A DNA stretch of 64,000 nucleotides from NCBI GenBank assembly GCA_024654025.1, contig JANLIR010000002.1:168959-232958 (forward strand). The letters are read 5' to 3'. Positions 9,799-59,228 of the stretch are shown here, piece by piece. Origin of the DNA: Candidatus Wolfebacteria bacterium (GTDB taxonomy: Bacteria; Patescibacteriota; Minisyncoccia; UBA6257; UBA9933). How positions within the stretch are numbered: position 1 is the first letter of the stretch; every line of letters begins with the position of its first letter. A program made the translations under genes and the position numbers. Under the pieces are notes generated by a model. It searched no databases and was not told where the DNA came from. It worked only from the letters and a program-made list of their open reading frames with translations.

Positions 9799-11910
9799 AT
9801 GCTTGAATCCAAAGAATTTTCAATTGATTTTCAAGGGAAACCCTTGAGCTTAAAAGTTTCCAAAATTGCCGAGCAAGCCAACTCGGCTGTTTTAGGCCAG
9901 TACGGCGATACCGTGGTTCTAGTAACCGCCACGATGGGCGAAAAAGACCGCGATACGGATTATTTTCCTTTGGTAGTTGATTACGAAGAAAAATTTTATG
10001 CCGCCGGAAAAATTATCGGCAGCCGGTTTATTCGGCGCGAAGGCCGGCCTTCGGAAGAAGCTATTCTTTCCGGAAGAATGATTGACCGGGCGCTTCGGCC
10101 CTTTTTTAATTCACGGATGAGAAGAGATGTTCAAATTGTAATCACTATCCTTTCTTACGACGAAGAAAACGATCCGGATTTTATTTCGCTTCTCTCCGCT
10201 TCAACCGCCTTGGCAATTTCCGATATTCCGTGGAATGGCCCTGTTGCCGGAGTAAGATTGGCAAAAATGAAAGGCGGAAATTTAATGATTAATCCGACCA
10301 AGACGGAAATTAGCGGCAGTGAATTTTTATTCGAATCTTTTGTCGCCGGAAATGAAAGTAAAATAAATATGATAGAACTGGCGGCAAACGAAGTTTCCGA
10401 AAAAGAAGTTATTAGTTCATTTGAAACAGCCCAGGAAGAAATAAAAAAATTGATAAAATTCCAAAAAGAAATTATTCCCAAAATCAGCAAACCAAAAGCC
10501 GAAGTGCTTCTTGTTGAGCCGGATCCGAATTTAAAGCATAAAGTTCAGGAATTTTTAAAAAATAAATTAGAAAACGCAGTTTATGTTTCCGATAAAGCCC
10601 AGCAGCGCCATATTTTGCGAAAGTTAAAAGAAGATTTGAAAGAGCATTTGGTTTCTGAGGGGCTAATTCCGGAAGGAATTGATGCTATTGTAGAGGAAGA
10701 AATCGACGCGCTTATCCATAAAAATATTTTGGAAAAAGATATGAGGCCGGACTCTCGAAAACTCGATGAGGTCAGAGCGCTTTTCGGCCAAGTCGGTTTA
10801 TTTAAACGGCTTCACGGTTCCGCCTTGTTTTTTAGGGGTAGTACTCAATCGTTGGCAGTTACAACTTTAGCCGCTCCCGGACAGGAGCAAATGATAGAAA
10901 CAATGGAAGTTTCAGGGAAACGCAGATTTATGCTCCATTACAATTTTCCGCCTTATTCGGTTGGAGAAATAGGCAGACTGGGCGGACCGGGACGCCGAGA
11001 AGTCGGCCACGGCGCTTTGGCGGAAAAAGCCATAAGGTCAATAATCCCCTCAAAAGAGGAATTCCCTTATACTATCCGTGTTGTTTCAGAGATTTTGTCT
11101 TCAAACGGGTCATCTTCTATGGCAACTGTCTGCTCGTCGGTATTATCGCTAATGGATGCAGGTGTTCCTATTAAAAAGCCGGTGGCAGGCATTGCTATGG
11201 GAATTATTATGGGACAAGCGACAAGCGACAAGCGACAAGATTACAAAGTGCTGACCGATATTCAAGGCCCGGAAGATCACTACGGCGATATGGATTGTAA
11301 AGTTGCAGGCACAACCGACGGAATTACCGCCATACAAATGGACGTGAAAATTGACGGCGTTACCACCGAAATTTTAAATGACGTGTTAGTTCAAGCCAAA
11401 AAAGCCCGCCTTGAGATTTTGGAAGTTATGAAATCCGTTATTGATAAGCCTAGGGAAAAACTTTCAGAGTTCGCGCCAATTATTTTGACAATCAACATTA
11501 GTCCGGAAAGAATCGGCGAAGTTATCGGCCCGGGCGGAAAAATGATTAATATGATAATTAAAGACACCGGCGTTACGACAATAGATATCGAACAAACCGG
11601 AAAAGTTTTTGTTTCCGCCACTACTCCCGAACAAGCCCAAGCGGCGATTGGGTTCATCCAATCCTTAACAAAAGAATTCGAGGTCGGCGAAATTATTGAA
11701 GGCAAGATTATCAAACTTTTGGAATTTGGAGCCATTGTCGATTTGGGAGGCGGCAATGACGGAATGATTCACATTTCAGAAGTAAAAAGCGGATTTGTAA
11801 AAGATATTAATGAAGTTCTTAAATTGGGCGATGTTGTGAGGGCAAAAATTATAAAAGTTGAAAACGGAAAAATCGGACTTTCGATAAAAGCCTTGGCGGA
11901 ACAAAAATAG
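9799..11910 (+). CDS. pnp: polynucleotide phosphorylase
   Basis: Two RNase PH domains (GSALFFRGSTQ, SSNGSSSMATVC, DHYGDMDCKVAGT), then KH (GPGGKMINMI) and S1 (GAIVDLGGGNDGMIHISE). Confidence 0.97.
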   Translation: MLESKEFSIDFQGKPLSLKVSKIAEQANSAVLGQYGDTVVLVTATMGEKDRDTDYFPLVVDYEEKFYAAGKIIGSRFIRREGRPSEEAILSGRMIDRALRPFFNSRMRRDVQIVITILSYDEENDPDFISLLSASTALAISDIPWNGPVAGVRLAKMKGGNLMINPTKTEISGSEFLFESFVAGNESKINMIELAANEVSEKEVISSFETAQEEIKKLIKFQKEIIPKISKPKAEVLLVEPDPNLKHKVQEFLKNKLENAVYVSDKAQQRHILRKLKEDLKEHLVSEGLIPEGIDAIVEEEIDALIHKNILEKDMRPDSRKLDEVRALFGQVGLFKRLHGSALFFRGSTQSLAVTTLAAPGQEQMIETMEVSGKRRFMLHYNFPPYSVGEIGRLGGPGRREVGHGALAEKAIRSIIPSKEEFPYTIRVVSEILSSNGSSSMATVCSSVLSLMDAGVPIKKPVAGIAMGIIMGQATSDKRQDYKVLTDIQGPEDHYGDMDCKVAGTTDGITAIQMDVKIDGVTTEILNDVLVQAKKARLEILEVMKSVIDKPREKLSEFAPIILTINISPERIGEVIGPGGKMINMIIKDTGVTTIDIEQTGKVFVSATTPEQAQAAIGFIQSLTKEFEVGEIIEGKIIKLLEFGAIVDLGGGNDGMIHISEVKSGFVKDINEVLKLGDVVRAKIIKVENGKIGLSIKALAEQK
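11213..11240 (+). repeat. heptanucleotide tandem repeat inside pnp
   Basis: GACAAGC x3 (perfect) plus GACAAGA. Encodes QATSDKRQD. Confidence 0.85.
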
Positions 11911-19184: not shown

Positions 19185-19206
19185 CTCCTTATTATAGCAA
19201 AAAAAG

Positions 19207-19278: not shown

Positions 19279-19394
19279 AAATTATTTCATAACCAGCTGC
19301 CTGTCCGCCGCAGTCCGCCTATTGGCGGACGAAGGAGGAAGCTACACGCGCAAAGATAGCAATAAATATAGCAAAAACTTTTGTATAGTCAAAG

Positions 19395-20333
19395 CTACTT
19401 CAAAGTCGTAATCGGCCTGCTTTGGACAATATAAAATTTATTTTTTTCAAAAGCCCATTCAATGTCCTGCGGTTTTTTATAATGATTTTCTATATTTTGG
19501 CATATTTGTGCCAACTGTAAAATATATTTGTCGGCCAGTTTTTGTTTTTCTTGCTTGGCTTTCGGCACGATAGTTTCTTTAACTCCGCTTCCGTCTCGCA
19601 CAACCATCATTTCCTGCTTTGAAATGTTTGAGTCCAAAATATTTCTGTTTGTTTTGTGAATTACGTAAGTGTCAGGAGTGATTTTGCCCCCGACAATCGC
19701 TTCGCCCAATCCATACCCGGCCTCAATTACCATCTGGTCATAATCTTCGGTTACTGGGTGTACCGTAAAACAGATTCCGGAAATTTCCGATTGAATCATT
19801 TTCTGCACCACAACTGCCACTAAAACTTTTTGCTTATGAAGTTTTTTTTCAAACCGATAAAAAATCGCGCGTGGAGTAAATAGCGATGCCCAGCATTTTT
19901 TAACATTTTCCAAAAGATTTCCCTTTGAAGTATTTAAATAACTTTCCAATTCTCCGGCCCAGGAAGCGGTAGAAGAGTCCTCGGCTGTGGCTGAACTACG
20001 TACTGCCACATATTTTGTTTTCAGCTTGGCGAATTCAGTTAAAATTTCTTTGGCGATATCTTTGGGAAATTTAGCGTTTAAAATTAAGCTCCTGATTTCT
20101 TCAGAGACCTTTTCAATGGAGTTTATATCTTTGACTTTTACTTTGTGGAGCTGGGCTTCTATCTCAACGTCAATATCGGTTTCTTCCAAAAACCTATCAA
20201 AAGCCCCAGCCAAAACCACAAATCCGGGCGGCACCGGAATTCCGGATTTTATCATTTCGCCAAGCGAAGCTCCCTTGCCTCCGGCAATAGCAGCGTCTTT
20301 TTTTGAAAGTTTGTTAATTTTTTTAATAAACAT
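19395..20333 (-). CDS. PEP synthase/PPDK N-terminal ATP-grasp (nucleotide-binding) domain protein
   Basis: AGGKGASLGEM, VAVRSSATAEDS, QDIEWAFEKNKFYIVQSRPIT. Ends where full-length enzymes continue. Confidence 0.85.
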   Translation of the reverse strand: MFIKKINKLSKKDAAIAGGKGASLGEMIKSGIPVPPGFVVLAGAFDRFLEETDIDVEIEAQLHKVKVKDINSIEKVSEEIRSLILNAKFPKDIAKEILTEFAKLKTKYVAVRSSATAEDSSTASWAGELESYLNTSKGNLLENVKKCWASLFTPRAIFYRFEKKLHKQKVLVAVVVQKMIQSEISGICFTVHPVTEDYDQMVIEAGYGLGEAIVGGKITPDTYVIHKTNRNILDSNISKQEMMVVRDGSGVKETIVPKAKQEKQKLADKYILQLAQICQNIENHYKKPQDIEWAFEKNKFYIVQSRPITTLK

Positions 20334-20366
20334 AATCTACATTTTAACAGCCCAAACCGCTTATAT

Positions 20367-31483: not shown

Positions 31484-31567
31484 GCGCAGGTGGCGGAGTG
31501 GTCAATCGCAACAGACTGTAAATCTGTCGCCCTTGTGGCTACGGGGGTTCGAATCCCTCCCTGCGCA
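31484..31567 (+). tRNA. tRNA-Tyr(GUA)
   Basis: GCGCAGG TG GCGG AGTGGTCAA TCGC A ACAGA CTGTAAA TCTGT, long V arm, GGGGG TTCGAAT CCCTC CCTGCGC A. Confidence 0.9.
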
Positions 31568-31579
31568 CACTTTTTTGTC

Positions 31580-31760
31580 GCCGAAGTAGCTCAGTGGCAG
31601 AGCAACTGTTTTGCGTCAGCCCCGTTAGATATGCCGGGATAGCTCAGTGGTAGAGCAACTGTTTTGTAAACAGTAGGTCGTCGGTTCGAATCCGACTCTC
31701 GGCTCTCTCGGTGTATCTAACGGGGTAAATAGGTCGCGAGTTCGAATCTCGCCTTCGGCT
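31580..31760 (+). tRNA. Thr-like tRNA shell interrupted by a complete tRNA-Thr (outer gene; possibly a pseudogene)
   Basis: 5' part GCCGAAG TA GCTC AGTGGCA GAGC A ACTGT TTTG... 3' part ...TAAAT AGGTC GCGAG TTCGAAT CTCGC CTTCGGC T. The acceptor pairs perfectly. The 3' anticodon-stem strand is missing. Confidence 0.45.
31633..31704 (+). tRNA. tRNA-Thr(UGU), nested
   Basis: GCCGGGA TA GCTC AGTGGTA GAGC A ACTGT TTTGTAA ACAGT AGGTC GTCGG TTCGAAT CCGAC TCTCGGC T. Confidence 0.9.
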
Positions 31761-31770
31761 CTAGACAAAA

Positions 31771-31842
31771 GCCAGAGTAGTTCAGTGGTAGAACGCTTTC
31801 TTGGTAAGAAAGAGGTCGGGAGTCCGATTCTCCCCTCTGGCT
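31771..31842 (+). tRNA. tRNA-Thr(GGU)
   Basis: GCCAGAG TA GTTC AGTGGTA GAAC G CTTTC TTGGTAA GAAAG AGGTC GGGAG TCCGATT CTCCC CTCTGGC T. The T loop reads TCCGATT rather than TTCGAxx. Confidence 0.85.
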
Positions 31843-31919
31843 CAAAATTAACTTTTAACAAGCAATTCGTAACCAGTAACGGATATTTTTATAAAAACTT
31901 GAAAAGTTACGGATTCTGC

Positions 31920-31954
31920 GTTATAAGTTAATAGTTACAAGTTACTAGTTAATA
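31920..31954. repeat. 5 x 7-nt heptad array just upstream of rpmG
   Basis: GTTATAA GTTAATA GTTACAA GTTACTA GTTAATA. Confidence 0.75.
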
Positions 31955-31960
31955 ATTATT

Positions 31961-32131
31961 ATGGCTAAAACAAAAGCAAAAACCCAGTTAATTCGGCTAC
32001 GCTGTCAAATCTGCAAGAGGATTAATTATTACAGCAAGAAAAACAAAGGGTCAGCTGAAAAAAAAATTGAGTTAAAAAAATATTGCAAGTGGTGCCAAAA
32101 ATCCATAGTTCATAAAGAAGCCAAAAAATAA
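31961..32131 (+). CDS. rpmG: 50S ribosomal protein L33
   Basis: Hand translation: MAKTKAKTQLIRLRCQICKRINYYSKKNKGSAEKKIELKKYCKWCQKSIVHKEAKK*. CxxC...CxxC zinc ribbon. Below the ORF-track size cutoff. Confidence 0.9.
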   Translation: MAKTKAKTQLIRLRCQICKRINYYSKKNKGSAEKKIELKKYCKWCQKSIVHKEAKK

Positions 32132-32141
32132 TTTTGGCTTT

Positions 32142-32212
32142 GGGAGCTTAGTTAAGTGGCATAATAGTTGTCTCCAAAACAACGGTCGGGGGTTCGATTC
32201 CCTCAGCTCCCG
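32142..32212 (+). tRNA. tRNA-Trp(CCA)
   Basis: GGGAGCT TA GTTA AGTGGCA TAAT A GTTGT CTCCAAA ACAAC GGTC GGGGG TTCGATT CCCTC AGCTCCC G. Confidence 0.9.
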
Positions 32213-32570: not shown

Positions 32571-33815
32571 ATGAGGCGTTTCTATTTTGATTACGCTGCT
32601 ACTACTCCGATTGACCCAGAGGTTTTAAAAGAAATAAATTCTAATTTAAGGAATAATTTTGGCAATCCCGGATCGCTCAATTTTTTCGGGCAAGCCGCAA
32701 TGGCAATGGTTGATAAATCGCGCGAAAAAATCGCCAACGCAATCAACGCTGATTTTCGGGAAATAATTTTTACCGGATCCGCGACGGAGGCAAACAATCT
32801 CGCACTCAGAGGAATACTAAAAAACGCCCGCCTGCGCCAAGGCTTCGGCGGGCAGGTAAAAACTAAAAGCAAAAAACCGAGAATAATTGTTTCAGCTATT
32901 GAACACGAATCTATTTTAGAAACTGCTAGAGATTTATCCGCCAGAGGCGGATCCGCCTTTGGCGGAGAAAAAGAAGGCGTGGAAATTATTTATTTGCCGG
33001 TTGATAAAAACGGCGTTGTGGATTTAAAGAAGTTAGAGAACGCATTGAACGAAAGAACGATTTTGGTTTCAATAATGTACGCGAACAACGAAACCGGAGT
33101 CATACAACCAATAGCAGAAATCGCCGAAATTATAAAAAAATTCAAAGAAAAAAAATACCCTAAACCCTACACCCTAAACCCTACACCCTATTTTCACACC
33201 GACGCTGTCCAGGCGTTCCAATTTCTGGATTGCAATATTAAAAACTTAGGGGTAGATTTAATGACTTTATCGGCTCATAAAATTTACGGACCAAAAGGAA
33301 TTGGCGCGTTATACGTACGCAACTCACAACTCACAACCTACAACTTACAACCAATAATTACTGGAGGAAAACAAGAATTTGGATTAAGATCCGGCACTGA
33401 AAACGTTGCCATGATAGCTGGTTTCGCCAAAGCAATTGAATTGGCAAATGAGAAACGGGAAAAAGAGAAAAAAAGAATTTTTTTGCTGGCGCAATATTTT
33501 TTTAAAGAAATAAAAAAGATTGTTCCGAGCGCCCAACTAAACGCAGGGAAGGCCAAGCGGCTGCCTAATATTTTAAATATCGCTTTCTCGGGTTATGACG
33601 CGGAGAGTTTGCTGATAAAATTTGACCTTAACGGCACTGCTGTTTCCCGAGGCTCGGCGTGTATGGCGCGTTCGTCTCAGTCGTCTTATGTATTAAAAGA
33701 AATGGGACTAAGTGAAAGCGAGCAGCGCTCCAGTTTGCGGTTTAGCTTCGGCAGATTTACAACAAAAGAAGAAATGTCTAAAGCCTTGAAAATTATAAAA
33801 AAAACATTAAAATAG
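32571..33815 (+). CDS. cysteine desulfurase (IscS/NifS family)
   Basis: YFDYAATTP, FTGSATEANN, SAHKIYGPKGIGALYVR (PLP Lys), RSGTENV, SRGSACM (active Cys). Start placed at MRRFYF. Confidence 0.9.
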   Translation: MRRFYFDYAATTPIDPEVLKEINSNLRNNFGNPGSLNFFGQAAMAMVDKSREKIANAINADFREIIFTGSATEANNLALRGILKNARLRQGFGGQVKTKSKKPRIIVSAIEHESILETARDLSARGGSAFGGEKEGVEIIYLPVDKNGVVDLKKLENALNERTILVSIMYANNETGVIQPIAEIAEIIKKFKEKKYPKPYTLNPTPYFHTDAVQAFQFLDCNIKNLGVDLMTLSAHKIYGPKGIGALYVRNSQLTTYNLQPIITGGKQEFGLRSGTENVAMIAGFAKAIELANEKREKEKKRIFLLAQYFFKEIKKIVPSAQLNAGKAKRLPNILNIAFSGYDAESLLIKFDLNGTAVSRGSACMARSSQSSYVLKEMGLSESEQRSSLRFSFGRFTTKEEMSKALKIIKKTLK

Positions 33816-42874: not shown

Positions 42875-42890
42875 TTTTTGTTTTTTATAG

Positions 42891-43206
42891 TGGAAGCGGA
42901 GGGATTGAACCCTCGTCCGCAAATTTTTTTAAAAAAAATCTACAAGCTTAGTTCGTGAGAACAATTTTGCTCCTTATTCTCGTTTCGGATATCGGAGCGT
43001 TTCTCCGAAACAATCCCAATTTATTACACCAGCTAATCCCTTATTGGGAGTCAGAGGCTGATGGCTTAAGCTTTAACCGATTGGTTTAGGCGAAAGCGAA
43101 TGCCGGTTTATTGGCAATTATTTGTTGGTTCGTTGATTAGCGAGGTGACGCGCCATCCTCGGCCTGCATTTTTTTAAGAACAATCTGCGTCGAAACTTAC
43201 ACTCCC
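42891..43206 (-). ncRNA. ssrA: tmRNA (ssrA), predicted tag ANKPAFAFA
   Basis: 5' GGGAGTGTAAGTTTCGACGCAG pairs with 3' ...GGACGAGGGTTCAATCCCTCCGCTTCCA, giving acceptor GGGAGTG/CGCTTCC with G3-U70. PK1-like GCAGGCCGAGG..CCTCGC. Tag ORF GCC AAT AAA CCG GCA TTC GCT TTC GCC TAA. Confidence 0.8.
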
Positions 43207-43649
43207 TTGAATTTAGCCGTTCTCATTTCTTTTTCTACGTCTCTTTTCTTGATCACTTCTCTTTTGTCAGATTTCTTCCGGATTCGCCCAAGACCGAATT
43301 CTATTTTAATCCGGCCCGAAGCGTTTTTAGTATAAACTTTTAAAGGCACCAAAGTCAAGCCTTTTTCATGAGTTTTGCCTATCAGAGTATTGATTTCCGC
43401 GCGTTTCAAAAGCAGCCGTCGAGTTCGTTTAGAATCATAATTTTCCGGCATGTTTTTGGGCTGGTAAGGAGGAACATCGGCGTTAATCAGCCAAGCTTGG
43501 TTTTCTTTTGTTACGACGTATGACCCGGACAAATTAATTCTGCCGCTTTTTATTGATTTTACTTCAAATCCGAGCAGTTCAATGCCGGCCTCGTATTTAT
43601 CGAGGATATCATAATCGAAATATGCGCGTTTATTTTCGGCTAAAGCCAT
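43197..43649 (-). CDS. smpB: SsrA-binding protein SmpB
   Basis: NKRAYFDYDILDKYEAGIELLGFEVKS..., KGLTLVPLKVY. Confidence 0.93.
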   Translation of the reverse strand: MALAENKRAYFDYDILDKYEAGIELLGFEVKSIKSGRINLSGSYVVTKENQAWLINADVPPYQPKNMPENYDSKRTRRLLLKRAEINTLIGKTHEKGLTLVPLKVYTKNASGRIKIEFGLGRIRKKSDKREVIKKRDVEKEMRTAKFKGV

Positions 43650-43689
43650 GAGTTTAGTATAAAGTATTAGGCGGTAAGTATAAAGAAAA

Positions 43690-43717
43690 TAAAAAAACAG
43701 GGAGCATTTCTGCTCCC
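43690..43717 (-). terminator. terminator of the 79-aa cassette gene
   Basis: GGGAGCA gaaa TGCTCCC followed by a T7 run on the minus strand. Confidence 0.7.
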
Positions 43718-43738
43718 CTTTGGAGAAACCGGCTTACT

Positions 43739-43978
43739 TTAATAAGGTGGTTTGGCTGAAGCTTTCCTTCCGTTTGTAACCACGTCTTCCCATTTGGCAT
43801 CAGTTTCCATGATCGCTTCGACCAGTTTGTTGCGACTCATCTCGGTCGGGAACGGCCACGGTTTGCGGTAGTGTTTGCGCCACCTTTTTTTGGCCTTGTC
43901 CTTTTCCGGCCCTTCCGACATAAGAAGTTCAATCGTCATTGCCTCGTCATATTGCTTGGGAGTCAGTTTCGGTCGCAT
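43739..43978 (-). CDS. hypothetical small protein (GC-richer cassette)
   Basis: gAAAGGAGGcgctcaaATG. 79 aa, basic and Trp-rich. No family recognised. Confidence 0.5.
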   Translation of the reverse strand: MRPKLTPKQYDEAMTIELLMSEGPEKDKAKKRWRKHYRKPWPFPTEMSRNKLVEAIMETDAKWEDVVTNGRKASAKPPY

Positions 43979-44099
43979 TTGAGCGCCTCCTTTCGGAAAC
44001 TTTTGGAAATTGTAATATGTAGCTGTTATAACTATTTAAGACAATGCGGGTTGTGTCAAGGCTTTAAATTCGTCTCATTTTGCTTTAAACTGATTTTTA

Positions 44100-45722
44100 A
44101 TGATAAAAGAAAGAATCAAGAAAATTATCAAAGACGCTGTTGGAGAGGAAGCCGAGATTTTTGTACCGGAAAATGAAAAATTCGGACATTACTCGACTAA
44201 TGTTGCTTTGAGATTGGCAAAAGAAAAAAGCAAAAAACCGATGGCGATTGCGGAGGACATAAAAGATAAAATATTATCCTTCGATAAACTCAGGACCTTC
44301 GGTAAAATCGAAATTGCTTCGCCAGGATTTATCAATTTTTGGATTTCAGAAAAAACTTTACAAAACGAATTAAAAGAAATTTTAAAAAAGAAAAATTCTT
44401 ATGGTAAAGCGTCAAGTGTCAAGCGTAAAATGGGAAGCATTCAAGTAGAGTTTATTTCCGCCAATCCGACCGGACCTTTAACAATCGGAAACGGAAGAGG
44501 CGGGTTTTTTGGAGATGTTTTGGCGAATATTTTGAAATTTTCCGGAAATAAAATTATCAAAGAGTATTATGTTAACGACGCTAAAAACAGCACGCAAATA
44601 AGGGAATTGGGTAAAACCGGGCTTGGTCTGGGGGAAACTTATTTAACTCCCGGATTAAAAAAAATAATCAAAAAATTAAAGTCGAAGATTAGTAATGTAA
44701 TCCTTCGTTGCGCTCAGGATGCTCCGCAAAGCGTCGCAGGCGAAGTCGGCTATTTGTTGGCAGGCGAAATAAATAAACAAAACAAGAAATTTGTTGAGAA
44801 AGTTTTAAAAATCAAATTCGACAAATGGTTTTCCGAAGAATCTTTGTATAAAAGCGGAGCGGTAAAAAAACTTTTAAGCGATTTGAAGAAGAAAAATTTA
44901 GTTTATGAAAAAGAAGGCGCCTCGTGGTTTAAAGCAAAACAATTTGGCGACACCGAGGACCGCGTGCTTATAAGAAGTTCGGGCGAGCCGACTTATATTG
45001 TGCCTGACCTTGCTTATCACGCGGATAAATTTAAAAAAAGAAAATTTTCTAAAGCCATTGATGTTTGGGGAGCGGATCATCATGGCTATATTCCTCGGCT
45101 CAAAGCCGGATTAAAATCGCTTGGAATTTCCGAAGACCGGTTGAAGATTGTTATTGCTCAGATGGTTCGGCTTGTTAAAAATGGCCAGGAATACAAAATG
45201 TCCAAAAGAAAAGGAGATTACGTGACAATGGAGGATTTAATAAAAGAAGTTGGGCTCGACGCGGCAAGATTTTTCTTTTTAATGAGCGCGCCGGACACTC
45301 ATATGAATTTTGACCTTGATCTGGCAAAAGAGCGTTCAATGAAAAATCCAGTTTATTACGCGCAGTACGCGGCAGTTAGGGCGAACAGTATTCTGCAAAA
45401 AAATAAAAAACTTAAAAACTTAAAAACTAAAAGCAACCCAAATTTAAATTTATTAAGTACGAAAGAGGATGTAAATTTAATGAAAATACTGGCGAGATTT
45501 CCGGAAATTGTCGAAGAAGCGGCCCAAAATTACAACCCGCAAATTTTAGTCAGATATTCAATTGACCTGGCAAGGCAATTTCACAATTTTTACGAGAAAG
45601 AACATGTCATAGGCGAGCGGGCGGATTTGATGTCGGCGCGATTAGAACTTATAAAAGCCACCAAAATAATTTTTGAAATTTTGTTCAAGCTTTTGGGGAT
45701 TAGCTATTCAAGAAAGATGTAA
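44100..45722 (+). CDS. argS: arginine--tRNA ligase
   Basis: Class I signatures ISANPTGPLTIGNGRGG (HIGH-like) and KMSKRKG. C-terminal anticodon-binding domain. Confidence 0.93.
   Translation: MIKERIKKIIKDAVGEEAEIFVPENEKFGHYSTNVALRLAKEKSKKPMAIAEDIKDKILSFDKLRTFGKIEIASPGFINFWISEKTLQNELKEILKKKNSYGKASSVKRKMGSIQVEFISANPTGPLTIGNGRGGFFGDVLANILKFSGNKIIKEYYVNDAKNSTQIRELGKTGLGLGETYLTPGLKKIIKKLKSKISNVILRCAQDAPQSVAGEVGYLLAGEINKQNKKFVEKVLKIKFDKWFSEESLYKSGAVKKLLSDLKKKNLVYEKEGASWFKAKQFGDTEDRVLIRSSGEPTYIVPDLAYHADKFKKRKFSKAIDVWGADHHGYIPRLKAGLKSLGISEDRLKIVIAQMVRLVKNGQEYKMSKRKGDYVTMEDLIKEVGLDAARFFFLMSAPDTHMNFDLDLAKERSMKNPVYYAQYAAVRANSILQKNKKLKNLKTKSNPNLNLLSTKEDVNLMKILARFPEIVEEAAQNYNPQILVRYSIDLARQFHNFYEKEHVIGERADLMSARLELIKATKIIFEILFKLLGISYSRKM
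44404..44438 (+). repeat. 5 x 7-nt heptad array inside argS
   Basis: GTAAAGC GTCAAGT GTCAAGC GTAAAAT GGGAAGC. Encodes GKASSVKRKMGS. Confidence 0.65.
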
Positions 45723-45814: not shown

Positions 45815-46654
45815 ATGCAAGCTATCAACGGGAAAGAAATTGCCCAAAAAATAATAGAAAATTTAAAAAATAAGCCAAAACCGGAAAAAATTTTGGCGGT
45901 AATTAAAGTTGGCGAAAACCCGGCATCAGAAAGTTTTATAAAGCAAAAAGAAAAAGTCGCCAAAGAATTGAAGGTGGATTTTCGGCTTTACGATCTTAAT
46001 GAGAATATCTCGCAAGATGATTTGAGAAAAGAAGTTGTTAAACTCGCTAATTTAAAAAAAGTAGGCGGAATAATTATTCAACTTCCTTTGCCAAAGCACA
46101 TAAATAATCAATACGTTTTAAACGTGATTCCGCGCGAAAAAGACATTGATGTTTTGGGCGAGCGATCTTTGGGCGCATTTTACGCCGGCCGTAATCCGGT
46201 TTTGCCGCCTTCAGTTGCCACAGTTGAAGAATTGTTGCGAGCTACAAGCTACAAGTTGCAAGTTGTAAAAGTTGCCGTTGTCGGTCTTGGCCAATTAGTG
46301 GGCAAACCAATTGCGGTGTGGCTGATAAAAAAATGTAAAGAACTTTATTTATTGGACCAAGGAAGCGACTTGGGAATATTAAAACAGGCGGATTTAGTGA
46401 TTTTAGGGGTTGGTAAAGCGGAAATTATAAGGCCGGATATGTTAAAGGAAAGCGCTTCAGTTATAGATTTCGGTTATGAAAGAAGCGAAGGACAAACAGG
46501 CGCTATTTCGGGAGATTTTGACGCCTCAGCGTTATTGGCTAGTGGCTATTCATTAATGACTGGGTTTTATACCCGTACTCCCGGCGGTACCGGTCCTGTG
46601 CTGGTGGCGAAAATTTTCGAAAACTTTTATACTTTGAACAATGAAAATGAATAG
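45815..46654 (+). CDS. folD: bifunctional methylenetetrahydrofolate dehydrogenase/cyclohydrolase
   Basis: VGENPASESFIKQKEK, GIIIQLPLP, DIDVLG, VVGLGQLVGKP, TPGGTGPV. Confidence 0.9.
   Translation: MQAINGKEIAQKIIENLKNKPKPEKILAVIKVGENPASESFIKQKEKVAKELKVDFRLYDLNENISQDDLRKEVVKLANLKKVGGIIIQLPLPKHINNQYVLNVIPREKDIDVLGERSLGAFYAGRNPVLPPSVATVEELLRATSYKLQVVKVAVVGLGQLVGKPIAVWLIKKCKELYLLDQGSDLGILKQADLVILGVGKAEIIRPDMLKESASVIDFGYERSEGQTGAISGDFDASALLASGYSLMTGFYTRTPGGTGPVLVAKIFENFYTLNNENE
46234..46268 (+). repeat. 5 x 7-nt heptad array inside folD
   Basis: GTTGCGA GCTACAA GCTACAA GTTGCAA GTTGTAA. Confidence 0.65.
46532..46561 (+). repeat. 30-nt repeat, copy 1 (in frame in folD)
   Basis: TTATTGGCTAGTGGCTATTCAttAATGACT. 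28/30 identical to 51390-51419. Confidence 0.85.
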
Positions 46655-47558
46655 GAAGGTGGTGGTTATTTTTATATTGCTAGTGGTAGTAATAGTCGCG
46701 GTTTTTTCGTTGAGGTTCCAGCGAACATTTTTTGTTTTCTCCAGCGGCAACGGAAATAAGGACGCTAGCGAGGGCATTAATTTTTTAGTTCTCGGAAAAA
46801 CCGGCAAAGTAATCGGCTGGAACTTCGCGCCCGATTTGGCTGATTCGATTTTTTTGGTCAATTATGTCCCAAAAATCGGGGTGGTCAATTTGATATCATT
46901 GCCGCGAGATCTTTACGTCAATATTGGCAATGAGCAATTCAAATTGAATGAAATTATCAAGAGAAACAAGATAAATGAATTCTTAAAAGGCAATTTAGTT
47001 GAAATGACAGGAATAAAAACTGACCGCTATGTCGTAATCGACGTTGATTTTGTAAAACAGGTTGTCGATGATTTGGGCGGTATTGAAGTGAATTTGCCGT
47101 CGCCCGCGATTGATTGGGCGAGCGGATATACAATGCCGACCGGCAACCGCCATTTGACCGGAGAAGACGTTGTTTGGCTGGTCAGAAACCGGTATTCTTC
47201 CGAGGGTGATTTTTTCAGGGAGAAAAACCAGCACGCTGTCATAAAATCAATTTTCGAAAAATATAAAAATTTAGGATATTTTGAAAAAGCCAAATTCGTT
47301 TTTAAAGCATTGCCCTTGCTCGCTCAGCTTGAGGGCAATATAAACGTGCAGGAATTTTTAACACCGGCATTTAATGTGAGCAATTTAAGATTCAACGATA
47401 TTGTTTTTGATTTTTCCACGGAGATTCTTCAAAGTTCCGGAGTGGTCGTGCCTGTCGGGACATCAAGCACTTCAACCGCGTATATATTGGTTCCTCGAGC
47501 CGGGCAAAACAATTACAGCGAATTAAAAGATTTCATCCAAAGCAAAATAGAGCGCTAA
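46641..47558 (+). CDS. LytR-CpsA-Psr (LCP) family protein
   Basis: N-terminal TM anchor. NFLVLG...DSIFLVNY...ISLPRDLYV...VVIDVDFVKQVVDDLGGIEV. Confidence 0.85.
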   Translation: MKMNRKVVVIFILLVVVIVAVFSLRFQRTFFVFSSGNGNKDASEGINFLVLGKTGKVIGWNFAPDLADSIFLVNYVPKIGVVNLISLPRDLYVNIGNEQFKLNEIIKRNKINEFLKGNLVEMTGIKTDRYVVIDVDFVKQVVDDLGGIEVNLPSPAIDWASGYTMPTGNRHLTGEDVVWLVRNRYSSEGDFFREKNQHAVIKSIFEKYKNLGYFEKAKFVFKALPLLAQLEGNINVQEFLTPAFNVSNLRFNDIVFDFSTEILQSSGVVVPVGTSSTSTAYILVPRAGQNNYSELKDFIQSKIER

Positions 47559-47560
47559 AA

Positions 47561-47595
47561 CAGGGTTTAGGGTATAGCCACTAGGGTTTAGTGGA
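47561..47595. repeat. 5 x 7-nt heptad array between the LCP gene and pth
   Basis: CAGGGTT TAGGGTA TAGCCAC TAGGGTT TAGTGGA. Overlaps the last pth codons. Confidence 0.6.
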
Positions 47596-48130
47596 AAATT
47601 TCTCGGGAAGCTTTTTCAAAAACAGAACTTATTTTTTTCAGGTCTTCGTTGGAAATTTTTCTAAGTACGAGGTCTCCGGCTTTTTTCCTGCCTCTTAATT
47701 TAACAAGTAATCCTGTTTTTGTACCGTTTATTCCTATTCTTAACCGCCAGAATTTTTGAGTCTTTAACGCATGAATAATAGATTCTACTCCTTTGTGTCC
47801 CGCGCTTGACCGATTAAATTGTAATTTGTATTTTCCCAGTTCAATATCTGCGTCATCGTGGATTATTAAAATTTGTTCCGGTCTAATAGCGCTTTTTTGG
47901 GAAAAATATTTAATCGCCTCCGAAACCGCTTTGCCGGACTCGTTCATAAAAACCGATGATTTAATAATAACAACTTCGCCTTCTTTGAAGTATTCGAAAT
48001 TTTTACTTCTTTTCCATTGGACTCCCGTTTTATTGTTTAGAAAATCGGCAAATAAAAAACCAACATTGTGAAAAGTTTTTTCGTATTCTTTGTCGGGATT
48101 TCCCAATCCGATTGTTAATTTGACATTCAT
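47588..48130 (-). CDS. pth: peptidyl-tRNA hydrolase
   Basis: LTIGLGNPDKEYEKTFHNVGF, IIHDDADIELGK, SSAGHKG. Confidence 0.92.
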   Translation of the reverse strand: MNVKLTIGLGNPDKEYEKTFHNVGFLFADFLNNKTGVQWKRSKNFEYFKEGEVVIIKSSVFMNESGKAVSEAIKYFSQKSAIRPEQILIIHDDADIELGKYKLQFNRSSAGHKGVESIIHALKTQKFWRLRIGINGTKTGLLVKLRGRKKAGDLVLRKISNEDLKKISSVFEKASREIFH

Positions 48131-48189
48131 ATCTCCTAATATTAGAATGTAAGCGACATTTTTTCAATTTACCCCTATTTTTAAAAAAC

Positions 48190-48738
48190 ATGAAATCATT
48201 CCTCCTCGCCTTAAAAGAAATATTGGAAATTGTTTTAATCGCTGTTTTGGCGGTCGGTGGAGTTCGGTATTTCCTTATCCAGCCATTTTTAGTCAATGGC
48301 TCCAGCATGGAACCTAATTTTGAAAGCGGAGATTATATTCTCATAAATGAAATATCATACCGTTTTCGCGAGCCTCAAAGAGGCGAAGTTATTGTTTTTC
48401 ATTATCCTAATAACGAAAAGACATATTTCATAAAAAGAGTAATAGGTCTTCCCCAGGAGCGCGTAGTTATTAAAAACGGTGAAGTAAAGATATTTAACAG
48501 CTCTAACGCCAAAGGGTTTGTTATTAAAGAAAGTTACCTGCCATCGATAGAAAAAACTAGCGGTGATATAGACAAGACTCTAGGAAGTGATGAGTATTTT
48601 GTTATGGGAGATAACAGAGGCTTTAGTTTTGATTCCCGACAATGGGGCACTCTTAAAAAAGGCGAAATAGTCGGTATTGCGTGGTTAAGATTATGGCCGC
48701 TTGATAAGGCCAAAGCTTTTGAAAGTCCGGCTTATTAA
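48190..48738 (+). CDS. lepB: signal peptidase I
   Basis: NGSSMEPNF (catalytic Ser), FIKRVIGLPQE (Lys box), YFVMGDNRGFSFDSR. Confidence 0.9.
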   Translation: MKSFLLALKEILEIVLIAVLAVGGVRYFLIQPFLVNGSSMEPNFESGDYILINEISYRFREPQRGEVIVFHYPNNEKTYFIKRVIGLPQERVVIKNGEVKIFNSSNAKGFVIKESYLPSIEKTSGDIDKTLGSDEYFVMGDNRGFSFDSRQWGTLKKGEIVGIAWLRLWPLDKAKAFESPAY

Positions 48739-48742
48739 ATAA

Positions 48743-50074
48743 ATGTCAAAAACTTCCAAAAAAGAAAACAAAAAAGAAAAAAGGGTGAAAAAGGTCAGAC
48801 AACTTCCCCAATCTCCAAAAGGAATGCACGATATATTGCCTGAGGACCAGCCTCTTTGGGAAAGAATCAGAAACAAAGCAAGAAGCATTGCCGGTCTTTA
48901 TAGTTTTTCTCGAATCGACACCCACATCGTGGAGAAAGCCGAAATTTTTGAGCGCGGCGTTGGCCAAGAATCGGAGATTGTCCAAAAGCAAATGTTTTAT
49001 ATAAAAACCCCTGCCCGCTCGGCAGGCGGGAAAGACGACGATAAGCTGGCTTTGCAGCCCGAAGGCACCGCTTCGGTAATGAGATCATATTTTGAAAACG
49101 GTTTAAGTCGCATGGGTCAGCCTGTCAAGCTTTATTACGAAGCGCCAATGTTCCGTTACGAACAGCCGCAGCAAGCGAGGTTTAGGCAGTTTTACCAATT
49201 TGGGATAGAAATTTTAGGCGGCGAGAGCGAACCGGCTTATGACGCTCAAGCCATGCTTATTCCTTATAAAATATTGGAAAGTTTAAAAGTAAAAAATATC
49301 ACCATTAAAATAAATAGCATCGGTTGCCATAATTGCCGCGGCAATTTTTTGAAAAAACTCCAGCAGTATTATAAAAGACATCAAAAAGATACTTGCAAAG
49401 ATTGCGAAAAAAGAATCAGCTCTAATCCGATGCGCCTCTTGGATTGTAAAAACGAAAAATGCCAGCCCATTAAAGCCGGAGCGCCGGTAATTTTGGATTT
49501 TTTATGCAGCCAGTGCAAAGCGCATTTTAAAAAAGTTATGGAATTCGCCGATGAATTAAAATTGCCTTATGTAATCGACCATCTTTTGGTTCGAGGCCTT
49601 GATTATTACAACCGCACGGTGTTCGAAATTTTCAGTGAAAAAGCTCCGTTCGCTTTGGTAGCCGGAGGAAGATACGATTATTTGTCGGAAATGCTCGGGC
49701 AAGGGAGAATCGCCGCTGTGGGAAGCAGTATTGGTTTAAACAGGGTTGCGGGAGTTTTAAAAGAGGAGGTGAAAGGGGTTTTAAGGAGCCAGCCGAAAGT
49801 TTTTTTGATTCATCTTGGCGATGCGGCAAAAAAGAAAGGCCTTAGTTTAATCCAAAAACTAGTAGAAGAAGGGATAAGTATCGGAGAGTCTTTCGGCAGG
49901 GAATCATTAAAGTCCCAGCTTCGGATGGCTGACAAGGAAAAAGCGCTTTTAGCGTTAATTATCGGGCAAAAAGAAGTTTTTGAAGAAAGCGTGATTGTCC
50001 GCGATATGACTAGCGGCGTTCAGGAAACGATTCCTTTAACCAAAATTATCGAGGACATTAAAAAGAGAACATAA
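48743..50074 (+). CDS. hisS: histidine--tRNA ligase
   Basis: PKGMHDILPED, LQPEGTAS, FRYEQPQQARFRQFYQFG (motif 2), GGRYD (motif 3), C-terminal anticodon-binding domain. Confidence 0.93.
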   Translation: MSKTSKKENKKEKRVKKVRQLPQSPKGMHDILPEDQPLWERIRNKARSIAGLYSFSRIDTHIVEKAEIFERGVGQESEIVQKQMFYIKTPARSAGGKDDDKLALQPEGTASVMRSYFENGLSRMGQPVKLYYEAPMFRYEQPQQARFRQFYQFGIEILGGESEPAYDAQAMLIPYKILESLKVKNITIKINSIGCHNCRGNFLKKLQQYYKRHQKDTCKDCEKRISSNPMRLLDCKNEKCQPIKAGAPVILDFLCSQCKAHFKKVMEFADELKLPYVIDHLLVRGLDYYNRTVFEIFSEKAPFALVAGGRYDYLSEMLGQGRIAAVGSSIGLNRVAGVLKEEVKGVLRSQPKVFLIHLGDAAKKKGLSLIQKLVEEGISIGESFGRESLKSQLRMADKEKALLALIIGQKEVFEESVIVRDMTSGVQETIPLTKIIEDIKKRT

Positions 50075-50078
50075 GTTT

Positions 50079-50489
50079 ATGGAGTGCGTTTTTTGCAAAA
50101 TAATCAATAAGGAGATAGGGTCGGAGATTGTTTATGAGGATGAAAATGCAGTTGGTGTTTTGGATATTCATCCTCGTTCGCCCGGCCACGTTATGGCGCT
50201 TCCAAAATTTCACTCCGAAAATATTTTGGATTTGCCCGATGGGGAAATAGCGGGAGTTTTTTTGGCTGTTAAAAAAATAACGGGTATTTTGAAAAAAACT
50301 TTTAACCCTGACGGATTTACCATAGGCATTAATCACGGCAAAGCCAGCGGACAGGCAGTTGATCATCTTCATATTCATATAATGCCTAGATGGCATGGCG
50401 ACGGAGGTGGTTCTATTCATAACGTAGTTAATAATCCTACGGAAAATTCTTTAGGAGAAATCGCCAGTAAAATACGAAAAAATAGTTGA
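50079..50489 (+). CDS. HIT family (histidine triad) protein
   Basis: CVFCKII...GQAVDHLHIHIMPR. Confidence 0.88.
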   Translation: MECVFCKIINKEIGSEIVYEDENAVGVLDIHPRSPGHVMALPKFHSENILDLPDGEIAGVFLAVKKITGILKKTFNPDGFTIGINHGKASGQAVDHLHIHIMPRWHGDGGGSIHNVVNNPTENSLGEIASKIRKNS

Positions 50490-50550
50490 TTGATTTTTTG
50501 TTTGACATAATTTTTTTTATCTGCTAATTTTATCATCATTAACTAATTAA

Positions 50551-50585
50551 TTATAAGCTATCGGCTATCCACTATGGCTATTTCA
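50551..50585. repeat. heptad array overlapping the rpsU start codon
   Basis: TTATAAG CTATCGG CTATCCA CTATGGC TATTTCA. The ATG is at 50574. Confidence 0.55.
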
Positions 50586-50789
50586 GTAAAAAGAAGAGAA
50601 GGGGAATCGGCAAGCTCGTTTTTGTACCGGTTCACCAAAAAAATGCAGCAAAGCGGAGTTTTGCGCGAAGCCAAAAAAAGAAGGTTTACGCATAGAAATA
50701 TAAATAAAAACAAAAGGAAGGCCTCGGCTTTGTATAAGTCCCAAAAAATGAAGGAAGTTTTGGCCGCGAAAAAACTGGGGAAGTTTTAG
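50574..50789 (+). CDS. rpsU: 30S ribosomal protein S21
   Basis: VKRREGESASSFLYRFTKKMQQSGVLREAKKRRF. Confidence 0.85.
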   Translation: MAISVKRREGESASSFLYRFTKKMQQSGVLREAKKRRFTHRNINKNKRKASALYKSQKMKEVLAAKKLGKF

Positions 50790-50919
50790 TAGTATCGCGA
50801 AGCCCTTGGGCGAAGCTTATATCGCGCCGAAGGCGCATTTATCAATAAATATCGACAAGGATACTTATAGATATATGTGGATATTTGCTCGCTAACACTC
50901 GCGATATTAATTTTGAATT

Positions 50920-51378
50920 ATGCTTCTCAACAAATTAAACGAGGATTTAAAAATAGCGCTCAAAGGAAGGGATAGTTTCAAAACCGGTGTAATTCGGATG
51001 GTTTTGGCTTCGGTTAAAAACAAGGAAATAGAAAAAAGAGGTAAGGGTCAGGAGCCAGTCTTGGCCGAAGAAGAACTGGTCGATTTGTTGATGAAAGAAG
51101 CGAAAAAAAGAAAAGAATCCGCCGATATTTATAAACAAGGAAATAGAAATGATCTGGCGCAAAAAGAAGAAGAAGAATTTGAATTTATTAAAAATTATTT
51201 GCCCGAGCAGCTAGGCGAGGAAGAAATAGAAAAAATTGTTAAAGTTGCTATAGAAAAAACCAACGCCAAAGAAATTAAAGACATAGGGCGCGTTATGGCC
51301 GAAGCCATGAAAGAATTAAAAGGCAAAGCCCAGCCGGGCGCAGTTAGCGAAATAATTAAAAAACTGCTAACCAATTAA
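50920..51378 (+). CDS. GatB/YqeY domain protein
   Basis: LNEDLKIALKGRD...VLASVKNKEIE...IKNYLPEQL... Confidence 0.8.
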   Translation: MLLNKLNEDLKIALKGRDSFKTGVIRMVLASVKNKEIEKRGKGQEPVLAEEELVDLLMKEAKKRKESADIYKQGNRNDLAQKEEEEFEFIKNYLPEQLGEEEIEKIVKVAIEKTNAKEIKDIGRVMAEAMKELKGKAQPGAVSEIIKKLLTN

Positions 51379-51389
51379 TTTTTAAAACC

Positions 51390-51419
51390 TTATTGGCTAG
51401 TGGCTATTCACAAATGACT
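51390..51419 (+). repeat. 30-nt repeat, copy 2 (at the rpiB 5' end)
   Basis: TTATTGGCTAGTGGCTATTCAcaAATGACT. Confidence 0.85.
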
Positions 51420-51851
51420 ATTTTTATAGGCGCGGATCATCGGGGGTTTAAAATAAAGGAGGCGTTGAAGCCGTATTTGAAAGAATTGGGGCTTGAAGTT
51501 GTTGATTTAGGAAACGACCATTTTGATGAAAATGATGATTATCCGGATTTTGCTAACGCGGTGGCGGGAAAAGTTTCTAAAAATCCCGAAACCGACAAAG
51601 GAATTTTAATTTGCGGTTCGGGAATCGGAATGAGCATCGCGGCAAATAAATTCGAAAACGTTCGCGCCGCCCAAGCAGATAAAATTGAAGAAGCGATATT
51701 GTCAAGAAAAGATAATGACGCTAATGTTTTGTCTCTTTCGGGGAACTCTCTTTCGGAGCAAGAGATAAAAGAAATAGTGAGGGCTTGGCTTGAAACCCCG
51801 TTTTCTAAAGAAGAAAGGCATGAAAGAAGAATAAAAAAAATAATCCCTTAA
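51414..51851 (+). CDS. rpiB: ribose-5-phosphate isomerase B
   Basis: MTIFIGADHRGF, ILICGSGIGMSIAANK. The ORF track offers an alternative TTG start at 51393. Confidence 0.88.
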   Translation: MTIFIGADHRGFKIKEALKPYLKELGLEVVDLGNDHFDENDDYPDFANAVAGKVSKNPETDKGILICGSGIGMSIAANKFENVRAAQADKIEEAILSRKDNDANVLSLSGNSLSEQEIKEIVRAWLETPFSKEERHERRIKKIIP

Positions 51852-51858
51852 ACTGGGA

Positions 51859-52869
51859 TTATTTTTTTAGTCCGGTTGCTTTTTTTACCTCCTCTAGTTT
51901 TTTGTTCGCAATCGCCTCCGCTTTTTTATTTCCAACTGCCATTAATTTTTCTATTTTCCTGATATTTTTGGAAAGCAGATTTTTCTTTTTCTGAAATACC
52001 ATAAAATAATCGATTATCACGTTTGATAAATCTTTTTTAAATTGGCCGTAAGATTTATTTTCGTATTTTTTTTCAATTTTCTTCATCGGCAAACCGCTCA
52101 AGTTTTTGTAAATTCTGAGCAGATTGGAAATCGCCGGTTTTGATTCGGGCAGGTATTTTATTTCTTTTCCGGAATCGGTCACAGCCCGTTTTATTTTCTC
52201 CGTCATAATCTGCGGCGAGTCGTCTAAAAATAAACATCCTTCGGGCATTGATTTGGACATTTTTTTATTTGGGTTGTCCAAGCTCATTATTTTCGGTGTC
52301 TCGGTTAAAAGCGGTTTTGGTTCAATAAAGACCTTGCCGCCTGCCCGCCCGTCTGGCGGGAATTTTTTATTGAATTTTCGCGCCAATGTTCTCGTTAATT
52401 CCAAGTGCTGGAGTTGGTCTTCGCCAACAGGAACAAATTCGGCGTCGTAAAGCAAAATATCAGAGGCCATTAAAACCGGATAATCAAATAACCCGACATT
52501 TATATTTTCTCGCTGGTGTTCGGATTTATCTTTGAACTGCGTCATTCTTTTTAATTCTCCAAACGGCGTAACGGTGTTTAAAATCCAGGCGGTTTCGCTG
52601 TGAGCCGGTATTTTCGACTGGATAAAGATTGTCGATTTTTCGGCGTTTAGTCCCGCTGAAAGATAATCAAGAACCAAATTCAAAACTTGCCCCGGTTTTT
52701 CTTTCGGGTCGTAACTTTCGGTTATAGAATGAAGGTCGGCAACAAAAAAGTAGCATTTGTATCGGCCTGAATTTTGCAGGTCAACAAAATTTTTTAAAGC
52801 CCCTAAATAATTTCCTATGTGAAGTTTCCCTGTCGGCTGGATTCCTGAAATTAAAATCGGTTTGGACAT
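51859..52869 (-). CDS. trpS: tryptophan--tRNA ligase
   Basis: SGIQPTGKLHIGNYLG (HIGH), KMSKS. Confidence 0.93.
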   Translation of the reverse strand: MSKPILISGIQPTGKLHIGNYLGALKNFVDLQNSGRYKCYFFVADLHSITESYDPKEKPGQVLNLVLDYLSAGLNAEKSTIFIQSKIPAHSETAWILNTVTPFGELKRMTQFKDKSEHQRENINVGLFDYPVLMASDILLYDAEFVPVGEDQLQHLELTRTLARKFNKKFPPDGRAGGKVFIEPKPLLTETPKIMSLDNPNKKMSKSMPEGCLFLDDSPQIMTEKIKRAVTDSGKEIKYLPESKPAISNLLRIYKNLSGLPMKKIEKKYENKSYGQFKKDLSNVIIDYFMVFQKKKNLLSKNIRKIEKLMAVGNKKAEAIANKKLEEVKKATGLKK

Positions 52870-59193: not shown

Positions 59194-59228
59194 TATTGGC
59201 GATTAGTGATTAGCCACTAGTAGGGATA
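59194..59228. repeat. 5 x 7-nt heptad array
   Basis: TATTGGC GATTAGT GATTAGC CACTAGT AGGGATA. Confidence 0.6.

Follow-up and report, generated by a model that had tools for sequence, protein, structure and literature searches.

The stretch analyzed here, called the window throughout, is the whole 64,000-nt (64-kb) segment at positions 168,959 to 232,958 of contig JANLIR010000002.1 (assembly GCA_024654025.1) from a Candidatus Wolfebacteria bacterium of the Patescibacteria. Two copies of a 30-nt element are found in the window, one within folD (copy A) and one directly ahead of rpiB (copy B). The genes around the copies are folD (45815-46654), an LCP-family gene (46641-47558), pth on the reverse strand (47588-48130), yqeY (50920-51378), and then rpiB. 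The names given to folD and rpiB in the initial annotation are borne out. An RpiB protein of identical sequence is assigned at NCBI to a Candidatus Wolfebacteria MAG (metagenome-assembled genome). The FolD protein matches PF00763 and PF02882 over its full length, aligns with PDB homologues at E=3e-38, and has an intact TPxPGGxGP motif. The two copies are as follows.

46532..46561, forward strand: copy A, a heptamer-periodic tract in folD, TTATTGGCTAGTGGCTATTCATTAATGACT; codons 240-249, read as LLASGYSLMT, in an enlarged loop preceding FYTRTPGGTGP
51390..51419, forward strand: copy B, the rpiB leader tract, TTATTGGCTAGTGGCTATTCACAAATGACT; read as LLASGYSQMT, spanning the rpiB ATG (51414-51416) and codon 2

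Sequence comparison of the two copies gives 28 of 30 identical positions at the coordinates first annotated, and the first 21 nt match exactly. The full 30-mer occurs only twice in the 64 kb. When the 21-mer was searched with up to 3 mismatches, the same two sites were the only matches in the window, and none appeared in 100 dinucleotide-preserving shuffles. The codon register is identical for both copies, with position 46532 starting folD codon 240 and position 51390 lying 24 nt before the rpiB ATG. This shared frame had been taken as a preferred frame of insertion. Both copies contain stop codons when read in frame +1 or +2, so only one frame is survivable within a gene and the common frame is forced. 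That the rpiB ATG falls in the same frame is a 1-in-3 coincidence.

The 10-nt core CTAGTGGCTA has four exact copies in the window, at 46539 and 51397 and, in reverse complement, at 47575-47584 and 59211-59220. The first reverse-complement site is where it had been placed, and the second lies 2 nt from the 59213-59222 originally reported. With up to one mismatch the core has 6 matches against 0.94 expected. Read in sevens, the 30-mer is TTATTGG CTAGTGG CTATTCA (T/C)(T/A)AATGA CT, a degenerate heptamer array. No target-site duplications, terminal inverted repeats, or defined ends are found at either copy, and the flanks are unlike: cctcagcg and gggtttta border copy A, and taaaacc and atttttat border copy B. 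An Rfam scan of the window returned tRNAs and the tmRNA alone, with no match at copy A or B.

For comparison with relatives, 80 FolD loci of about 20 kb were taken from metagenomes, together with four syntenic relatives and two short contigs; loci carry the prefix L. Related copies occur at the same two kinds of site.

L097, folD loop: CTAGTGGCTAGTGGCTATTCACTAACAACT
L009, folD loop: CTAGTGGCTAGTGGCTATTCACTAAGTACT
L034, folD loop: a shorter version
L012, rpiB leader: CTATTGGCTAGTGGCTATTCTCTAATGACT
L098, rpiB leader: CTATTGGCTAGTGACTATTCACTAATGACT

The six full 30-mers (the two of the window and those of L097, L009, L012, and L098) are identical at 25-28 of 30 positions in all pairs. Locus L009 was found by a motif search, which biases its similarity; its location in the FolD loop was not selected for. 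The copies are carried by independent assemblies (the rpiB leader in L012/L013 and L098, the folD copy in L097, L009, and L034) and are therefore no assembly artefact.

Period-7 tracts were counted in the window and in 65 non-redundant loci of the relatives (898 kb). In the window, 15 tracts are found against 1.6 in shuffled sequence, and periods of 5, 6, 8, 9, and 10 show no enrichment there. The relatives contain 189 period-7 tracts against 14 in shuffles. The tract density is about 0.70 per kb in intergenic sequence, about 0.07 per kb in coding sequence outside folD, and about 1.1 per kb in folD, which was the bait gene of the search. Perfect CTAGTGG units appear at 2-5 per array in L004, L009, L034, and L097, and the arrays elsewhere have as few as 2 and as many as 10 units. 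CTAGTGG shares its behavior with dozens of other units, among them ACAAGTT, ATTGAAA, and CCAATTA. The two 30-mers are members of a large family of degenerate heptamer tracts built from many units.

The intergenic tracts are frequently arranged in inverted orientation. An inverted partner lies within 160 nt of 33 of the 74 intergenic tracts (about 45%) and a direct partner near 6 of the 74. Such inverted pairs form a palindromic family at the Saccharibacteria locus L006. Two inverted pairs of about 100-140 nt across are present in the window, one between the holin-like gene and secG (57880-57919/57980-58016) and one in a divergent spacer (8805-8845/8863-8900). The two reverse-complement cores lie in the following tracts.

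47562..47594, forward strand: tract between the convergent LCP-family and pth genes, AGGGTTT AGGGTAT AGCCACT AGGGTTT AGTGG, holding the reverse complement of CTAGTGGCTA
59194..59225, forward strand: tract 3' of a forward-strand gene, with a terminator-like hairpin directly downstream, TATTGGC GATTAGT GATTAGC CACTAGT AGGG, holding the other reverse-complement core

A function of the core as a DNA uptake signal was considered and rejected, because the window contains the 10-nt core four times and many unrelated units behave alike. Arrays of (CTAGTGG)n with 3-10 copies are also present in 20 IMG/VR viral contigs (L099-L118), whose GC content extends from 0.40 to 0.71. In the Bacteroidetes-labelled contig L011, a CTAGTGG tract and a TAACTG-type tract, the latter similar to the published TAACTGA repeats, lie about 100 nt apart (187-204 and 310-348). 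Since the viral contigs and the Bacteroidetes contig carry such units, the units are not phylum-specific. The viral occurrence of CTAGTGG shows that the unit is widespread and is uninformative on function.

Within folD, the site of copy A is a loop that is 5 residues longer than in the solved FolD structures 3p2o and 6ape, in agreement with the excess of about 5 residues first noted. In the AlphaFold model of FolD the mean predicted local distance difference test score (pLDDT) is 91, and residues 241-250 are the lowest-confidence block, with a pLDDT of 65. A FolD tryptic peptide across the tract would contain ISGDFDASALLASGYSLMTGFYTR. Among 67 distinct orthologous sequences of this loop, 41 are periodic at a lag of 7 or 8. 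The mean lag-7 autocorrelation is 0.49 against 0.22-0.28 at control lags, and the mean loop length is 15.6 aa for periodic and 12.5 aa for nonperiodic sequences. The loop peptides fit tandem heptamers read in three frames, as in IGNWKLEIGNL from (ATTGGAA)n, IENCKLKIENL, LPITNYQLLN, and ERLAISDVRLA. Most orthologues are also periodic at a second folD site, around nt 410-455. The reading frame is kept in 80 of 80 folD loci, with no stop codon through both tract sites, and the FolD length differences between loci are multiples of 3. An untranslated insert (a bypass element, intron, or intein) was rejected on these same counts.

Tracts are found inside other genes of the window and its relatives, including a cupin-type GPI gene in the window. 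Conserved tract sites are also present in PMM. In serine hydroxymethyltransferase (SHMT, glyA), which lies upstream of folD in many relatives, a tract of the GCCAATC/GCAAATC type occupies one conserved loop in four loci (ANRQSPIAK and similar peptides). The in-gene tracts are listed below.

46237..46271, forward strand: second folD tract, GCGAGCT ACAAGCT ACAAGTT GCAAGTT GTAAAAG, read as RATSYKLQVVK, between the two FolD domains; its unit is related to that of the rpmG leader tract
11205..11246, forward strand: tract in polynucleotide phosphorylase (PNPase), about four copies of GACAAGC, read as GQATSDKRQD; 6 aa longer than PDB 5yjj
33148..33196, forward strand: first tract in an IscS-like cysteine desulfurase, ACCCTAA/ACCCTAC units; 13 aa longer than PDB 5kz5
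33315-33361: second tract in the same desulfurase, AACTCAC/AACTTAC units; loop replaced, 2 aa longer than 5kz5
44399-44438: tract in arginyl-tRNA synthetase (ArgRS), GTCAAGC units; at the same position in L012 (8114-8158), GTCACAA units
SHMT tract loci: L034 8781-10028, L053 8700-9965, L078 3613-4854, and L021 8745-10028

The in-gene tracts coincide with insertions relative to solved structures in FolD, PNPase, and IscS. Where tracts persist in genes they never break the frame; they sit at a small number of fixed, structurally permissive loops and supply filler residues there. Read on the opposite strand, the ACCCTAA/ACCCTAC units of the first desulfurase tract equal the plant-telomere unit, and the ArgRS gene of L012 has a further tract at 7956-8003.

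Six genes of the window (rpmG, rpsU, rpiB, secG, smpB, and ruvA) have a tract directly ahead of a start codon that lacks a Shine-Dalgarno (SD) motif. The leader tracts of two ribosomal-protein genes are given here.

31914..31963, forward strand: rpmG (L33) leader tract, GTTATAA GTTAATA GTTACAA GTTACTA GTTAATA, of a different unit, ending at the ATG
50552..50586, forward strand: rpsU leader tract, CTA-anchored, TATAAGC TATCGGC TATCCAC TATGGCT, running into the rpsU ATG at 50574

Of the 40 genes whose start codon has a tract running up to it, 0 have a GGAG or GAGG motif at -20 to -4, against 9.5% among all called genes (p=0.026). These SD statistics are rough, each gene having been taken crudely to begin with its longest open reading frame (ORF). 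The figure of about 9.5% among the crudely called genes of all loci by itself suggests low SD use in the clade. The ruvA and smpB leaders (13013-13049 and 43650-43694) have CTTTATACT repeats in common, and TATACT stands 6-7 nt before each ATG, a spacing that would suit promoters of leaderless mRNAs. The tRNA cluster at 31484-32212 surrounds rpmG, and the tmRNA gene (42888-43206) adjoins smpB (43197-43649), both on the reverse strand.

Copy B fills most of the 35-nt spacer between yqeY and rpiB, which contains no GGAG or GAGG. The rpiB ATG and codons 2-4 are in heptamer register (CTAATGA CTATTTT) in the window, L012, and L098. It had been proposed that the element donates the rpiB start and supplies an upstream TTG-initiated LASGYSQ extension. 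The N-terminal pattern M-x-I-[YF]-[IL]-G-A-D-H is common to more than 50 RpiB homologues, the NCBI model has 145 aa from the same ATG, and position 1 of Pfam LacAB_rpiB aligns just after the ATG at 51414; the extension is not upheld. The element is absent from the rpiB leader of the syntenic relatives L095 and L096 and is replaced by a TAACTTAT array in L094, and the ATG is the same in all three. The ATG is thus present in relatives lacking the element, and the element did not create the rpiB start.

A TTGACA-N17-TAATTT motif, found by eye and by conservation, lies at 50502-50530, upstream of the rpsU tract, and is conserved in L012, L095, and L096. In these three loci the rpsU leader tract itself is replaced by repeats of the TAACTAAT type. 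A scan of 46300-51950 for sigma-70 promoters gave no promoter-like site between yqeY and rpiB and no overall excess. With the 35-nt spacer, the lack of a promoter-like site, and the conserved motif before rpsU, an rpsU-yqeY-rpiB operon is probable, with rpiB as its third gene and copy B as the intercistronic leader of rpiB.

The rpiB-leader copies in L012/L013 and L098 match copy B at 27 of 30 positions. The window folD copy matches the rpiB leaders at 27-28 of 30 positions and its orthologous folD copies at 25 of 30, and it has in common with the rpiB leaders a derived first unit (TTATTGG/CTATTGG) and AATGA in the fourth unit. This greater nearness to the rpiB leaders than to the folD orthologues argues for common descent of the array at the two loci plus homogenisation. 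More generally, a unit is shared with at most one mismatch by 16.4% of tract pairs within a locus against 6.0% between loci (permutation p of about 0.0005). The L012 folD tract (TTAACTAAT, AACCAATTAAC) matches the rpsU leader of the same locus in the way that the window folD tract matches its own rpiB leader, and similar within-locus matching is seen in L034, L035, L040, and L083.

The rate of change was read from a pair of closely related folD genes, L027 (5747-6565) and L031 (390-1202), whose identity outside the tracts is 93.9%. At tract 1, near nt 410-455, every unit reads ACTTACG in L027 and ACTTACA in L031; tract 2 has an identity of 54% and differs in length by 6 nt. This pair shows tracts turning over in concert and at a far higher rate than the flanking sequence. 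The folD genes of L029 and L051 form a mosaic, in which the last approximately 250 nt and the downstream sequence are nearly identical and the first approximately 600 nt are about 75% identical, a pattern suggestive of inter-lineage recombination in folD. At 18999-20368 and 308-1540, the syntenic locus L093 contains a bAvd and reverse-transcriptase pair that looks like a diversity-generating retroelement and a second RVT_1 gene between smpB and argS, where the window has small ORFs (43650-44099).

From these data, the 30-mers are likely to be paralogous copies of one composite array, [C/T]TA[G/T]TGG CTAGTGG CTATTCA YnAAnnA CT, belonging to a lineage-wide class of the Patescibacteria. The identity of 28 of 30 positions would result from common descent within the array family, together with template switching or gene conversion that copied sequence nonreciprocally between the rpiB leader and the folD loop. 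The folD tract would be a tolerated passenger whose frame is dictated by the stops in the other frames. The rpiB tract probably acts at the RNA level in SD-independent initiation or in its regulation, comparable to the proposal made for TAACTGA repeats; this is the least certain step. An RNA-level role in initiation or its control is likewise inferred for the leader tracts as a group. A further proposal is doubtful and is offered tentatively: a conserved factor might read (CTAGTGG)n-CTATTCA arrays in leaders, as an initiation or regulatory signal in place of an SD sequence in these reduced genomes poor in SD motifs, and copying might overwrite enzyme loops (FolD, SHMT, PNPase, IscS, and ArgRS) with self-homogenising arrays.

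Several results weigh against this interpretation. The period-7 score of copies A and B is 0.63-0.65, at the detection threshold, and the two are thus weakly periodic. The L097 and L009 arrays are identical at 28 of 30 positions where the FolD proteins are 48% identical, unlike a neutral passenger (the L009 FolD is 45-48% identical in protein to the others). Concatenated proteins place the window nearest L095, and FolD and the rpiB leader place it nearest L012; these gene trees conflict as to the direction of copying between folD and rpiB. No tract indels are found in about 70 kb of locus pairs that are more than 99% identical, and ongoing slippage is unsupported. The preference for 5' over 3' gene ends is about 2-fold and not significant (0.34 per kb in convergent and 0.71 per kb in divergent spacers, 4 versus 9 tracts), and the crude start calls affect the SD comparison. 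The minimum free energy of 187 tracts does not differ from that of shuffled sequence (Wilcoxon p=0.16). An unstructured-leader hypothesis was rejected, tract RNA being no less structured than shuffles.

The alternative that survives best, which is nevertheless unlikely, is that the in-gene tract is a selected RNA or DNA cis-element (a factor-binding site, a signal for mRNA processing or pausing, or a signal for the LCP-family gene) that the FolD loop accommodates. Such selection would fit the loop site, which has stayed periodic in 41 of 67 lineages although the unit itself has been wholly replaced, the roughly 15-fold higher tract density of folD relative to other coding sequence, and the CTAGTGG-CTAGTGG-CTATTCA array, which is 83-93% identical across FolD genes that are 45-74% identical in protein. 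The same array stands upstream of start codons in the distant Patescibacteria L001, L004, and L006. In L023 and L066, inverted tracts flank the GDFD segment in folD as a possible long hairpin, and the LCP-family gene overlaps the folD stop codon about 80 nt from the tract. However, 26 of the 67 loop sequences are nonperiodic with the protein otherwise visibly unchanged, and the tracts in PNPase, IscS, SHMT, and folD tract 1 are mid-gene, far from downstream starts. The unit sequence differs widely between lineages, no structure signal is found, and the high array similarity of L009 is subject to its search bias.

Quite improbable is the model of the initial annotation, a discrete mobile segment of about 30 nt that favors one frame when it inserts into coding DNA and is able to provide a start codon. 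Copying or homogenisation between sites is retained from that model; the discrete 30-nt element is not. It had been recognized that the idea would be undermined if the element were unique to the two sites and FolD alignments contained no indel; related copies exist, and the FolD indel is present. In its favor, the segment is at two unrelated loci of one genome with 28 of 30 positions identical, and the same two kinds of locus are occupied in other genomes. The heptamer register of the rpiB ATG and codons 2-4 also fits, with MTIF where the element is present and M[VI]IY in the closest relatives without it. Nevertheless, there are two copies in 64 kb without target-site duplication, terminal inverted repeats, or defined ends, arrays elsewhere vary from 2 to 10 units, and dozens of other units behave alike; the stop codons explain the frame, and the rpiB ATG is found in all relatives without the element. 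A miniature inverted-repeat transposable element (MITE) or other small transposable element was rejected as a class, since the copies have no fixed ends, no terminal inverted repeats, no target-site duplication, and unlike flanks.

Chance, convergence on an LLASGYS-like peptide, or an untranslated tract (bypassing or intron-like) is hardly credible: the three nucleotide differences between the window folD copy and the L012 rpiB leader are all synonymous in the shared frame, a possible hint of peptide selection, but the 21-mer is found in 0 of 100 shuffles, the conserved start of RpiB comes downstream of the rpiB copy, the peptides differ wholly between lineages, period 7 is not a multiple of a codon, and the open frame of all 80 folD loci would be needless for a skipped segment.

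The Patescibacteria are a huge and barely cultivated group whose gene-expression signals are largely obscure. If the tract-led starts are true signals, they would explain the expression of many genes that lack an SD sequence and would improve start-codon calling in thousands of MAGs. A repeat unit that is not a triplet can persist for long periods within essential genes, turn over in concert, and give lineage-specific loop insertions. The in-gene tracts bear on the evolution of protein indels, on marker-gene alignment and phylogeny, and on spurious "hypervariable" regions in MAG proteins. If the tentative proposal of self-homogenising arrays that overwrite enzyme loops were correct, the copying would be an ongoing process, previously undescribed, by which core proteins acquire in-frame indels and replaced loops. 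With CTAGTGG and TAACTGA-like heptamers recurring in viral contigs and across unrelated phyla, the question of the function of bacterial heptamer repeats is raised anew.

Repetitive extragenic palindromic (REP) sequences, bacterial interspersed mosaic elements (BIMEs), and MITEs are short intergenic repeats that often occur in inverted pairs. The intergenic tract pairs resemble the REP/BIME type in being inverted and 80-140 nt across, and at L006 they form a recognizable family. They differ from REP, BIME, and MITE sequences in that their arms are tandem heptamers, copies A and B are unpaired, and there are no target-site duplications. Among cyanobacteria, the short tandemly repeated repetitive (STRR) sequences reportedly owe their name to Mazel et al. 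1990. Contiguous heptamer repeats of Nostoc PCC 7120 are dispersed and lie near promoters or start codons, some overlapping the start; deletion of the repeats alters reporter expression and a binding partner is postulated, the experiments having been performed on recF and recO alone (10.1101/2022.06.06.494920). The Nostoc repeats have few fixed units and are not described as in-frame fillers of enzyme loops, unlike the many-unit, loop-filling tracts of the Patescibacteria.

As cited in PMC4679880, Mrazek et al. 2007 found heptanucleotides to be the commonest long simple repeats in many bacterial genomes and ascribed them to polymerase slippage; in the same secondhand account, units that are multiples of three predominate in genes. 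Here, unlike such repeats, 7-nt units are within essential genes and in frame, with no copy-number polymorphism seen. Tandem repeats of Borgs evolve rapidly, occur in ORFs, and add new, probably disordered protein segments (PMC9879509); Borgs are described there as archaeal extrachromosomal elements whose repeats are recent and virtually absent from host genomes. The Patescibacteria tracts, by contrast, are chromosomal, short, and degenerate, at sites that are old and common across a bacterial clade.

TAACTGA heptamer direct repeats have been described in marine Beggiatoaceae, some Cyanobacteria, and Bacteroidetes (MacGregor 2015, PMC4679880). They consist of two to several tandem units at many loci, mostly intergenic and a few nt upstream of starts; a canonical SD sequence is rare in the genes they precede, which include ribosomal-protein genes, and a role in translation was proposed (PMC4679880). 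A minority of them overlap or sit in ORFs, at protein peripheries (PMC4679880). Like these repeats, the Patescibacteria tracts are tandem 7-nt arrays at multiple loci, mostly intergenic, at starts without an SD sequence, and in some cases within ORFs. Unlike them, the Patescibacteria tracts have many lineage-specific degenerate units rather than one dominant unit, occupy fixed loops of core enzymes across the clade, and are in inverted pairs in about 45% of the intergenic cases. Membership in the TAACTGA family in the strict sense was rejected, since many units occur here (CTAGTGG and CTATTCA among them) and a TAACTG-type tract was seen only on contig L011. Searches of open-access papers turned up none that describes heptamer repeats in Patescibacteria. 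Heptamer tracts are thus a known kind of repeat, and their many-unit, loop-occupying, inverted-pair behavior in Patescibacteria differs from the cases described.

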